Shown: positions 52,553 through 61,402 of the stretch, in pieces | Numbering within the stretch: position 1 is the first letter of the stretch | Layout of the letters: each line of letters begins with the position of its first letter | NCBI GenBank assembly: GCA_963706955.1 | Contig: CAVPOC010000012.1 | Location: 1 to 64,000 of the forward strand | Direction: 5' to 3' | Origin: an uncultured Verrucomicrobiae bacterium | GTDB lineage: Bacteria; Verrucomicrobiota; Verrucomicrobiia; Chthoniobacterales; Terrimicrobiaceae | DNA length: 64,000 bases | The notes under the pieces: model-generated | Databases searched by the model: none | Told to the model about the DNA's origin: nothing | What the model saw: the letters and a program-made list of their open reading frames with translations, nothing else | Made by a program: the position numbers and the translations under genes

Positions 52553-55428
52553 GCGCCGTCCCGTTCGTTCGCAGACACATTGGACCTTCGCCGGAGGACA
52601 TCGAAGAAATGGTCCACGTTGTCGGGGCCCCGACACTCGACGATCTCATCAATCAAACGATTCCGGAGAAGATTCGGCTCAGGCACGCGTTGAATTTGCC
52701 ACCGGCTCGCTCGGAGGAGGCCGCGCTGACACTCCTGCGCGAGATCATGGATAAGAACGAAGTTCGACAATCCTTCATCGGAATGGGCTACGCGAACTGC
52801 CGCGTGCCAGCGGTGATTCGACGCAACATCCTCGAGAATCCCGGATGGTATACAGCTTATACACCTTACCAAGCGGAGATCGCGCAGGGGCGTTTGGAAG
52901 CTCTGCTGAATTTTCAGACCCTGGTGTGTGATCTGACCGCGATGAATATTTCCAATGCCTCCCTGCTCGATGAATCGACCGCCGCTGCGGAAGCTATGGC
53001 CATGGCCCACGCCGTCAAGGGCGGTGGCGCCTTCTTTGTCGCCGATGATTGCCATCCCCAAACGATTGCCGTCGTTCGGACGCGCGCCATCCCGCTCGGA
53101 ATTCGCCTGATCGTCGGACCAATCTGGGACTTTACGTCAGAGACTGTCTTTGGAGCGTTGATTCAATATCCGGCCACGGATGGGGTCATCCACGATCTCG
53201 GCCCGATCATCGACCTCGTGCACGCCGCAGATGCGCTCGCGATCGTGGCTACCGATCTGCTGGCGCTTACTTTGATCAAACCGCCAGGCGAATATGGAAC
53301 TGACATCGTCGTCGGCTCGGCCCAGCGATTCGGCGTCTCACTCGGATATGGCGGCCCGCACGCCGCTTTCCTGGCCACGCGCGACCAATACAAGCGCCGA
53401 ATGCCGGGACGCCTCGTGGGAGTTTCGCGCGATGCGGAGGGTCGCTTGGCTCTGCGCCTGGCGCTGCAGACGCGCGAACAACATATTCGCCGCGAAAAAG
53501 CGACCAGCAACATCTGCACGGCGCAGGTGCTCCTCGCCGTCATGGCGTCGATGTACGCCGTGTATCACGGTCCGCAGGGATTAAAGTCAATTGCCACTGG
53601 CGTCCATCGACTGACCTGTCAGTTAGCTGGGGCACTCAAGGAACGCGCTTGGGCGGTGCATCCAGGTCCGTTCTTCGACACAATCCGAATCTGGCTCGCT
53701 GGAGATCGAGCCGATCACCTTCTCGACCGCGCGACTGCTTATGGCATTAACCTTCGCAAAATTGACGATCATGCCATCAGCCTCACGCTCGACGAGACGG
53801 TCCAGGACATCTCGGTTCTGCTACCGGTGTTCGATCTCGATCCTGCCGCCATCAGCGCCGAGCCGGTTGAAGTCATTGGAAGCGGACTTAAGCGTGAATC
53901 GGAGTTTCTTGAACACCCTGTCTTTAACAAGTATCAAACGGAAACTGAGCTGCTCCGCTATATCCGCCGACTCGAATCGCGCGATCTTTCGCTGACCACC
54001 TCGATGATCCCGCTCGGCTCCTGTACGATGAAGCTGAACGCCGCAGCGGAAATGCTTCCCGTAACCTGGGACAAGGTCGCGAATATTCACCCCTTCGTGC
54101 CGTTCAGCCAAGTGCGGGGATATCACGAGCTGTTTCGACAACTGGAGGGTTGGTTGGCAGAGATCACAGGCTTTGCCGCGGTTTCCCTGCAGCCTAATGC
54201 CGGCTCACAAGGCGAGTACGCCGGCTTGCTGGTCATCCGCGCATTCCATCGATCGCGTGGGGACATTGGCCGCGATATCTGTCTCATTCCCACCTCGGCG
54301 CATGGAACCAATCCCGCCAGCGCAGCCATGGCCGGCATGCAGGTCGTCGCCGTCGCCTGCGACAGTTCTGGCAACATCGACCACGCTGACCTTGAGAAAA
54401 AGATCAGCGAACACGGGGAGACTCTTGCCGCGCTGATGATCACGTATCCGTCAACCCACGGCGTCTTCGAGGAATCCATCGAAGCCGTCTGCGCAAAAGT
54501 CCACGCCGCTGGAGCATTGGTCTACATGGACGGCGCAAACATGAACGCCCAGGTCGGTCTTTGCCGGCCCGGCGACATCGGTGCCGACGTTTGTCATTTG
54601 AATCTTCACAAGACTTTCTGCATCCCGCATGGGGGCGGAGGTCCGGGTGTCGGGCCGATCTGCGTCGTCGAACGCCTGGCGCCATTCTTGCCGGGTCACT
54701 CGGTCGTCGGTATCGGCGGCCCTCATTCGATCGGCGAAATCTCAGAAGCGCCCTGGGGAAGCGCCAGCATTCTGATGATCTCCTGGATGTACATCGTCTT
54801 GATGGGCGGCGATGGATTGCTCGAAGCGACGCGCGTGGCAATTCTCAACGCGAACTATATTGCCGCCCGCTTGGCACCGTATTTCCCGGTTCTCTATTCT
54901 GGACAAAATGGTCGCGTCGCGCACGAATGCATCATCGACTTTCGGGATTGGCGCCAGCGGGCCGGTATAGAGGTCGAGGACGTCGCCAAGCGTCTGATAG
55001 ACTATGGCTTTCACGCGCCGACTATGAGCTGGCCAGAGCCAGGGACCCTCATGATTGAGCCTACCGAAAGCGAATCGAAAGAGGAGCTCGACCGCTTCTG
55101 TGAAGCGATGATTGCAATTCACGCTGAATTGCTCGCAATCGAGAGGGGCGAATTATCACGCACCGACAATCCGCTAAAATCCGCGCCACACACCGCCACC
55201 GCGGTGGCTTCTGACTCGTGGAGTCACTCCTATAGCCGTGAACGAGCCGCCTTCCCGGCGCAGTGGCTAAAGGAATACAAATTCTGGCCAGCGGTGGCCC
55301 GCATTGACAACGTCTACGGAGACCGGAACCTCTTTTGTTCGTGCCCACCTGTCGAGTCCTTCGAGCAAGACTTGGAGACGAATCCAGTTAGTCTGGAGGC
55401 AGCGATTGCTCCTCAGCCAGTTTCTTGA
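52549..55428 (+). CDS. gcvP: Glycine dehydrogenase (decarboxylating), single-chain
   Basis: [38 protein letters not shown]. Confidence 0.98.
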
Positions 55429-61300: not shown

Positions 61301-61402
61301 GAGCTCCTGATTCGATGGCGGTTGCTCCAACCAAGAGAAACCAAGAAACCCAACGAACAGGGAAGCAAAGGCCAACAAGGCCAGCCAAGGACCAAACTTC
61401 AA
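58319..61402 (-). CDS. Fusion of a multi-TM GT-C-like (YfhO-like) domain and a polyprenol monophosphomannose synthase-like GT2 domain
   Basis: N-terminal PWWTPNFLQG and EAYHRDWRA; C-terminal IIPTYNE, DDNSPD, GLGSAY, DADLSH, GSRY, GYGFQVE, EVPIVFTERRSG. TTG start. Confidence 0.85.
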   Translation of the reverse strand: MKFGPWLALLAFASLFVGFLGFSWLEQPPSNQELLANYAKVADYANAAASVRGLPWWTPNFLQGCSLAFLSLGALSSLTLYACAAMVGPYAGVKIAALAFLFLCPLTMFSFVRRLCPGDGWTAFSCGVAYALAPAVLLRLGHVEHLANVLGFAAIPLVFQGVLVFLEERTARAAVMCAATSALLVLSYAKVAVLVLPLLVVFAFWTWIARARFYLPAGRLVLLCVGVFVILGVLPNLPSFREAGGVAMFDFGPFEAWQRSYSAESMISWIDREGFLTGRQPSAQSEVRASSSYMGLLGVACVIGLFFVRRRDTWRTVEAGIFRLFVALTLLAHWLGLGANTALSGQFAFLTHAGSAWDPAIAISWGLLVLQGVAIWCILPSALPGRGWIAAVAIVVYFGVPGFRVIENLSLYADIRAPHDFFEMGGTFCFSVACGVAARLLLREICGPNLRAIAAVALLGLAWLDSVSSVPSFFKGPIDRQTFDDFLAAQHFLSEQARPGRVAPYSGRYFYLLTPILSGRPIIAEAFNSHLMLRGVAELQRASLQSRQSFLTFLKIAGVSQILIDKKDPDTPQSLQEFLRSVGIPVFENEHFVILDNPDSLYPAAYSKYFMDLDGTPEEIAARSLAAAAGGLLVVSARTRFGDSEGLIRSEDLRPATPISKLSQAAVQRRTAEALEIDQSEETGWLVIPEAYHRDWRAVRAGHDLELAKAYGALIAIRLDGKPGKIALSFKAPWWYPVSVWTALAGWLGVIGILALEKLALVPARWRTPWLGAPRAQPMVLPSPHKRMNEDAPSRVLAIIPTYNEASGIDSILNRVLNANHGLEMVVIDDNSPDQTAQVVKAHRAFGQRVHLLERKGKLGLGSAYKEGFRWAMERGFDTCIQIDADLSHDPDDIPRLLVALENGADVAIGSRYSGGVRVLNWPQERLFLSVGASRFVRALTGLPLADVTSGFKAIRCDALRNLDWKQFRTEGYGFQVELHYFLWKTGARLVEVPIVFTERRSGQTKMTAAIALEAICRVLQLAIFKR

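Follow-up and report, generated by a model that had tools for sequence, protein, structure and literature searches.

Human TMEM260 (CAZy GT117; PDB 9RQL, 9RQM and 9RQN; PMC10214176), in which a GT-C glycosyltransferase core is combined with a Rossmann-like domain and a tetratricopeptide repeat (TPR) domain, is one of the nearest described counterparts of the system reported here. We analyzed the first 64,000 nucleotides (the window) of contig CAVPOC010000012.1, our contig C12, from the 4.16-Mb genome of a soil bacterium that is 92.5% complete and whose close homologues carry names from the Terrimicrobiaceae (Verrucomicrobiota). The window holds a two-gene operon. Gene B encodes a TMEM260-like protein with the same three domains in the same order, and gene A, located upstream, encodes a second GT-C module fused to a glycosyltransferase family 2 (GT2) domain resembling dolichol-phosphate-mannose (DPM) synthases. 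We put about even confidence in the reading that this operon encodes a synthase and a two-transferase complex for periplasmic protein O-mannosylation, for which we infer the sugar, the acceptor, any selection of substrates by the TPRs, the order of steps and the binding of the two transferases.

Three other groups of enzymes frame the comparison. The DPM synthase of Pyrococcus furiosus (PfDPMS; 5MLZ; PMC5526996) and enzymes of the DPM1/Ppm1 type share with gene A the GT2 fold and nearly all donor and acceptor residues. Unlike PfDPMS, however, the GT2 domain of gene A lacks a GtrA-like domain and sits behind an entire GT-C, and Q93 and K178 have become S and Q. In the streptococcal GtrB/PgtC2 system and the Streptococcus mutans Pgf operon (PgfS, PgfE, PgfM1 and PgfM2; PMC12041528) one synthase likewise feeds GT-Cs, of which Pgf has two, as here, and the GT-C of gene A is related to YfhO. 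In contrast to the present locus, with its TMEM260-type partner and diderm host, the GT-Cs of those systems are both YfhO-type, transfer glucose or GalNAc and are served by a separate synthase gene. Actinobacteria combine a synthase, a protein O-mannosyltransferase (PMT) and PimE (PMC12757957), and thus a lipid-phosphate-mannose donor, an initiating and an elongating GT-C and a presumed flippase, as we propose here; neither transferase of our locus is a PMT (GT39) or PimE (GT87) by sequence, however, and here the synthase and second GT-C form one polypeptide. An earlier note on this DNA, made from its sequence, had stated that characterized bacterial O-mannosylation uses PMT enzymes. This agrees with PMC12757957, but non-PMT GT-Cs for protein O-glycosylation (PgtC2, PgfM1) are already known in streptococci.

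Distant bacterial homologues of TMEM260 are mentioned in PMC10214176, and the accessible parts of PMC11292533 and PMC4973528 contained nothing further on them. A literature search with little coverage of subscription journals found no characterized bacterial TMEM260 member, no fusion of a GT-C with a DPM synthase and no such complex. This locus contributes three things: the fusion, evidence from displacement that bears on the donor, and the prediction of a two-transferase complex.

Gene B encodes a TMEM260-type GT-C

The earlier note had described two co-oriented genes 48 bp apart, and the minus-strand open reading frames (ORFs) are separated by exactly this distance (Table 1). Its description of the second gene as a DUF2723 protein with DSGEF and HPTGYP motifs, many transmembrane (TM) helices and a TPR tail was also confirmed: the product matches Pfam PF11028 at 104.6 bits (cut-off 24.2; E = 6.9e-30), its predicted model has 13 membrane helices, and the gene is the only one of its type in the source genome. 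Comparison with human TMEM260 (9RQL) gave E = 1.1e-16 for the single sequence and E = 1.8e-45 for a profile of 59 sequences. In the human enzyme, D52, H67, R264, Y267 and R355 contact the donor, D441 is the catalytic base and the TPR domain binds an extended peptide (bioRxiv 10.64898/2026.03.17.711096). Gene B retains five of these six donor and catalytic residues, and the resulting split active site supports its placement as a TMEM260-type GT-C. Among 59 aligned homologues D60 is kept in 54, H75 in 56, R332 in 56, Y335 in 57 and D531 in all 59; the match of D531 to D441 comes from the profile alignment, the single-sequence alignment being offset by one residue.

The predicted model of gene B (pLDDT 92.6, pTM 0.90) matches other GT-C folds at Z scores of 20-22, with no TMEM260 entry among the fold-library matches. 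Neither gene B nor gene A matched the PMT/GT39 families PF02366 and PF13231 at E = 0.01. Gene B differs from the human protein in length (960 versus 707 residues), with a longer TPR tail, and in having two additional TM helices with a loop insertion, which form a predicted partner interface; residues 229-290 align to just 9 human residues. Further differences from human TMEM260 are the missing equivalent of R355, the lack of an IPT sequon in the genome, the bacterial inner-membrane setting and an activity that is, for gene B, predicted from sequence. The human and bacterial TPRs were not alignable, and no Asn was found among the 90%-conserved TPR columns of the gene B homologues. Bacterial TMEM260 homologues are abundant, with 4804 representatives at E up to 1e-10. 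One locus carries two TMEM260-like genes in tandem (L138:4695-10814).

Gene A combines a DPM1-type synthase domain with a second GT-C

Gene A had been noted as a Ppm1/DPM1-like synthase. The GT2 domain is indeed present (Pfam match at residues 799-962), but the description was incomplete: the N-terminal ~770 residues, three quarters of the protein, form a second multi-TM GT-C module of the YfhO/AftD-like kind that had been overlooked. The best solved match of the GT2 domain was 5MLZ (E = 1.3e-31 over residues 795-1021), onto which its model superposed with a Z score of 27.2 and a root-mean-square deviation (rmsd) of 2.3 over 225 residues at 33% identity. Bit scores were 117 against PfDPMS, 44 against ArnC and 22 against GtrB. 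The domain retains the guanine loop, the DAD motif with H94, the lipid-phosphate residues and the A-loop of PfDPMS; the individual residues kept are Y10, E12, D39, R63, G68, L69, D89, D91, H94, R117, R131, S135, F177, R202 and K208, and GtrB has Asp at the position of H94. These retained GDP-mannose and lipid-phosphate residues bear out the suggested lipid-phosphate-mannose synthase domain, as a prediction from sequence. No curated NCBIfam synthase model matched gene A at its cut-off, the best-scoring being those for non-mannose enzymes such as AglJ (65.5 bits, cut-off 325) and PpgS (44.3 bits, cut-off 370). A strict type III DPM synthase is defined by DADxQHPP, K178 within KIL and a GtrA-like TM domain (PMC12992685); gene A, with DADLSHDP and Q976 and lacking a GtrA domain, falls outside this definition.

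The predicted model of gene A (pLDDT 89.0) matched the GT-Cs AglB (Z = 20.2, rmsd 4.0, 440 residues aligned), STT3B (Z = 19.2), ALG12 (Z = 18.5) and ArnT (Z = 18.0), and residues 5-774 aligned with AftD over 610 residues (Z = 18.5, rmsd 5.4). By sequence, gene A scored 15.2 bits against YfhO (PF09586)/PTPS_related (PF10131), below the cut-off of 28.5. Among 20 homologues scanned, four exceeded the YfhO cut-off (P0093, P0097, P0098 and P0100) and four the PTPS_related cut-off, which makes the module a distant relative of these families; PF09586 is carried by 115 of 120 gene A homologues among the matches listed. A profile of the module found no match better than E = 0.28 among the sequences of solved structures. 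E33 is present in 51 and E144 in all of 54 homologues, and E33, K94, E144, H145, R416, E525 and D568 vary little or not at all, the pattern that would be expected of an active enzyme. The model, from which the helices were counted, would place residues 469-734 outside the inner membrane and the GT2 domain inside.

Synthase and TMEM260-like genes occur together across the phylum

To place the pair among its relatives we used 41 genomes from the order, 121 from the phylum and the best 80 of 596 gene B loci; these samples overlap and follow clades, so that the counts are not independent. The threshold for a GT2 orthologue in the phylum sample was fixed beforehand (E = 1e-45). A TMEM260-like match was found in 43 of the 121 genomes and a GT2 orthologue in 44, namely the same 43 and G084. 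The orthologue is thus present in 43/43 genomes with a TMEM260-like gene compared with 1/78 of the others, and the proposed co-occurrence of DUF2723 and Ppm1-like genes held. Within the order, full-length gene B and the GT-C of gene A were found in the same 29 genomes. The two genes are adjacent in most of these and unlinked in at least four (G021, G022, G035 and G036); the keeping of the pair in relatives argues that the pairing is not due to chance. Two apparent losses of the GT2 domain were rejected and not counted, as the GT2 is cut by the contig end in G040 and gene A runs off the contig in G033.

Upstream of gene B in the 80 loci lay the fusion (27), the GT-C alone (8), a stand-alone DPM1-type gene (10) or neither (35), and 17 of the 35 in the last class have too little upstream DNA in the fetched flank. 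Whole-genome checks located the gene A GT-C in 27 of 37 non-fused cases. Within the 61-row clade around the window it was present for 53 of the 55 loci tested, the misses being L164 and L172.

A putative GtrA-bearing synthase occurs where the DPM1-type enzyme is missing

Both GT-Cs are kept while the DPM1-type enzyme is missing in 12 of 27 genomes tested, and also in G019 and G021, the latter 100% complete. The best GT2 match in these genomes is usually a 370-390-residue GT2-GtrA protein that aligns end to end with PfDPMS (5MLZ, E = 2e-47 over residues 3-359). A search of 64 genomes for this GT2-GtrA enzyme gave 12 positives, which were exactly the 12 without a DPM1-type enzyme (one of these matches is incomplete, lying where a contig begins); it was found in 0/27 genomes with the fusion and 0/23 with another DPM1-type enzyme. 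In G176 and G184 neither enzyme was whole. Among the 41 order relatives, full-length GT2-GtrA is present in only G019 and G021. The synthase state changes 4 times on the gene B tree, and grouping of the 12 GT2-GtrA rows as one clade was rejected by the approximately unbiased test (P = 7e-53, from quick trees of 31 of the 75 rows under a simpler model). DADLQH or DCDLQH together with GFK was found in the GT2-GtrA protein at 12/12 fetched loci, in 5 of which the enzyme also has GT-C neighbours of its own. The occurrence of GT2-GtrA exactly where the DPM1-type enzyme is missing favours a shared polyprenyl-phosphate-mannose donor, and would be most simply explained if the transferases require a synthase and either of the two DPMS-like enzymes can fill that role.

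The full-length PfDPMS-like GT2-GtrA genes lie in mesophilic, Terrimicrobiaceae-related genomes (L187:1492-2607, L188:1435-2598 and L198-L209), often after tandem PMT_2-type GT-C genes. Strict type III DPM synthases are described as confined to hyperthermophilic archaea (PMC12992685).

The two GT-Cs are predicted to form a complex

Complex prediction with gene A residues 1-475 and gene B residues 28-510 gave an interface score (ipSAE) of 0.70 (0.70, 0.73 and 0.69 in individual runs) compared with 0.00 for the best control. Solved pairs reach the mark used for this score in 116 of 157 cases and mismatched pairs in 2 of 215; these counts are only a rough guide for our own alignments. Predicted contacts agreed 100% between runs and partner pLDDT was at least 82. 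The predicted interface is small, with ~31 contacts between residues 347-366 of gene A and residues 259-270 and 349-355 of gene B. Both gene B patches are absent from human TMEM260, so that recall of that structure is unlikely to explain the result; other GT-C dimers have been solved, however. R263 and G352 of gene B are kept in 54 of 55 homologues from partner-bearing genomes, and at the predicted D358-R263 contact (A358/B263) the 35 adjacent gene pairs have D-R in 33 and N-R in 2. The model supports binding between the two GT-Cs.

A proposed mechanism and the alternatives to it

In the proposed route, the cytoplasmic C-terminal GT2 domain of gene A would convert GDP-mannose to polyprenyl-phosphate-mannose, which would then cross the inner membrane to its periplasmic face. 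Gene B would bind this donor through D60, H75, R332 and Y335 while its TPR and Rossmann-like domains hold an extended exported polypeptide, and D531, as base, would place alpha-mannose on Ser/Thr. The YfhO/AftD-like GT-C of gene A, docked on the inserted helices of gene B, would use the same donor, most likely to extend the mannose added by gene B or to glycosylate a second set of sites. The earlier note had proposed that donor synthase and transferase are encoded together. They do lie in adjacent genes, but because a second GT-C is part of the same polypeptide as the synthase, two transferases are involved and the donor would not be gene B's alone. On the donor side, the source genome has a ManC-like enzyme, a short protein with a guanylyltransferase domain (292 bits, below the cut-off of 373 for the bifunctional model), and gmd, which scored above its cut-off. 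PF01050 was absent from the search of the source genome, in which the short ManC-like protein turned up instead.

Several observations count against this proposal. For the donor, PfDPMS itself accepts GDP-glucose at one quarter of the rate (PMC5526996), and its Q93 and K178 correspond to S888 and Q976 in gene A. The position of human R355 falls on M447/P448 in gene B and the arginine is not kept; Arg occupies position 447 in 26 of the 59 wider homologues. R355 contacts mannose in the human enzyme, where R355A retains ~20% activity, making this residue supporting rather than essential (bioRxiv 10.64898/2026.03.17.711096). The replacement GT2-GtrA enzymes, whose function is predicted from sequence, miss parts of the type III definition (PMC12992685), and the displacement provides only 3 independent pairs, all concordant (P = 0.25). 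At the level of the phylum, G084 has a synthase and no TMEM260-like match, the co-occurrence of the two genes tracks large clades, and the GT-C of gene A occurs in just 2 of the 121 genomes, which implies that most TMEM260-like enzymes work without it; the combination found widely is that of synthase and TMEM260-like enzyme, to which the second GT-C has been added locally. For the complex, R263 also occurs in gene B homologues whose genomes yielded no partner (6 of 10), interface positions are no better conserved than the rest (identity 0.49 versus 0.51), and the distant partner at L175 lacks the interface motif. For the acceptor, the human sequon and a looser IPT pattern gave 0 matches in 15,245 ORFs of the source genome, and teichoic acids are glycosylated by YfhO homologues (PMC12041528).

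These last two points also speak for the alternative that fares best, which we nevertheless consider unlikely: the same machine and donor would act on an envelope glycan or glycolipid (lipopolysaccharide core or O-chain, or capsule), to which the GT-Cs add side-chain sugars. Most bacterial GT-Cs among our fold matches (ArnT, AftB, AftD) act on glycans or lipids, and a cassette of variable content, with GT2s, methyltransferases, epimerases and a further GT-C, is often found next to the operon. Gene B, however, has the mark of a peptide-acting TMEM260, a catalytic Asp in a Rossmann-like domain beside a TPR domain, and the pair is constant across genomes that differ in what the neighbouring cassette contains and on which strand.

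Protein O-glycosylation with another sugar, such as glucose, GlcNAc or GalNAc, appears slightly less probable again. It would fit the loss of R355, the non-mannose enzymes at the head of the NCBIfam scores and the use of glucose and GalNAc by the streptococcal YfhO-type systems (PMC12041528). The GT2 domain, however, has a mannose synthase as by far its best solved match and retains the guanine- and mannose-binding residues, and the enzyme that replaces it is again nearest to PfDPMS, with DADLQH or DCDLQH and GFK at every fetched locus.

A bolder version of the proposal, which we regard as doubtful, has a heterodimer of the unrelated TMEM260-type and YfhO/AftD-type GT-Cs, with a built-in polyprenyl-phosphate-mannose synthase, that makes the donor, carries it through the membrane with no need of a separate GtrA-type flippase, and on exported proteins both initiates and elongates O-mannose glycans. 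It is prompted by the absence of any detected GtrA flippase in the source genome (92.5% complete) and by the GtrA-bearing synthase appearing exactly where the DPM1-type domain is missing; against it, genomes with a stand-alone DPM1-type enzyme also have no GT2-GtrA, separate flippases not having been searched for there. That the synthase serves only its fused GT-C, gene B being a neighbour with its own donor and job, is very improbable: the fusion couples GT2 and GT-C directly in 27/80 loci and gene B is unlinked from gene A in the four genomes named above, but a stand-alone DPM1-type gene lies directly upstream of gene B without the GT-C in 10/80 loci, 41 of the 43 phylum genomes with synthase and gene B have no match to the gene A GT-C, and the two GT-Cs are predicted to bind.

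Candidate acceptors and other transferases in the genome

An IPT-domain acceptor was rejected, as the sole TIG/IPT match is a 245-residue ORF among short RHS/YD-type ORFs (L081, contig C3 162320-165541), a cluster that appears to be a fragmented gene for a large surface protein. In a crude screen, Ser/Thr-Pro linkers were found in 17 of 903 ORFs whose N terminus has a hydrophobic stretch compared with 16 of 2751 others. These were likewise rejected as acceptors: the corresponding DNA pattern, seen in 39 of 41 relatives, is shared by genomes free of the system yet lacking from G036, where the system is present, and so gives no evidence for acceptors. Eight PF13231 (PMT_2) GT-C matches, 7 of them above the cut-off, lie elsewhere in the genome (contigs C1, C3, C4, C6, C8 and C9, with a tandem pair on C3), and these GT-Cs could share the lipid-sugar donor.

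Organization of the locus

The features of the operon are given in Table 1. The 3' end of gene B overlaps the convergent gcvP gene by 41 bp (55388-55428), and this gcvTHP neighbourhood is conserved in relatives of the genus and in some of the family. A scan for promoters and terminators was uninformative, with 2 promoter-like sites compared with 2.4 expected and 13 terminator-like sites compared with 8.9 expected.

Table 1. Positions in the window of the two genes of the operon and of their domains and motifs
Feature	Position	Strand	Description
Gene A	58319..61402	-	1027 aa, TTG start; YfhO/PTPS_related/AftD-like GT-C (~1-770) fused to DPM1-type GT2 (795-1021)
Gene A GT-C membrane module, residues 1-468	59999..61402	-	13 TM helices read off the model; conserved E33, K94, R139, E144-H145, E242, R416
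Gene A residues 347-366	60305..60364	-	Predicted interface with gene B product, including D358
Gene A periplasmic domain (by model), residues 469-734	59201..59998	-	Alpha/beta core and beta-sandwich weakly matching the YfhO C terminus; E525 and D568 invariant
Gene A last TM helix (735-758) and cytoplasmic linker	59021..59200	-	Linker pLDDT <50 at 775-789
Gene A putative DPM1/Ppm1-type polyprenyl-phosphate sugar synthase domain, residues 795-1021	58340..59020	-	DADLSH at 884-889 (58736-58753)
Intergenic gap, 48 bp	58271..58318	-	Purine-rich run immediately 5' of the gene B ATG
Gene B	55388..58270	-	960 aa; TMEM260-like (DUF2723, PF11028) GT-C with Rossmann-like and TPR periplasmic domains
Gene B putative sugar-recognition motif	58031..58093	-	DSGEF at residue 60 (D60 = human D52), HPTGYP at 75 (H75 = human H67)
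Gene B two-TM insertion, residues 227-278	57437..57592	-	Not in human TMEM260; predicted interface residues 259-270, including R263
Gene B putative donor-loading loop	57266..57277	-	R332, Y335 (= human R264, Y267)
Gene B residues 349-355	57206..57226	-	Second predicted interface patch; lies where human TMEM260 has an alignment gap
Gene B D531 in GGTDPGRF	56678..56680	-	Aligns with D441, the catalytic base of the human enzyme
Gene B TPR helical tail, ~719-953	55412..56116	-	Pfam TPR repeats from ~residue 730, and model

Adjoining the operon is a cassette (61730-64000 of the window and 63983-66753 of contig C12) whose first methyltransferase gene is divergent and starts upstream of gene A. On the plus strand it has two S-adenosylmethionine methyltransferases and an ArnC/PgfS-like GT2, and on the minus strand a 519-residue membrane protein without a Pfam match followed by an NAD-dependent epimerase. 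Content and strand of the cassette vary among relatives (C-methyltransferase, GT4, FkbM, GT2-methyltransferase fusions) while the A/B pair stays, which suggests a variable surface-sugar module.

Further from the operon, all on the minus strand, a membrane protein gene that looks by eye to be of the CNNM/CBS type (47654-48995) is divided between two ORFs (48030-48995 and 47654-48154) that overlap in different frames, perhaps because of a frameshift, and a tRNA-Lys(TTT) lies at 47434-47506. A region for a large membrane/TPR protein (39738-46353) overlaps a 5' extension of the ilvD ORF in another frame; its 465-residue ORF with TPR repeats (44956-46353) may represent the terminal part of a longer gene that is interrupted near 46350.

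Implications

In this operon a candidate donor enzyme and transferase are encoded side by side, and their catalytic residues can be named, so that the function of the family is open to direct test. If the proposal is true, a diderm phylum would have a route of protein O-mannosylation independent of PMT. It would also have a synthase fused to a GT-C within a mixed GT-C complex, and with it a handle on the lipid-phosphate-mannose flippase.

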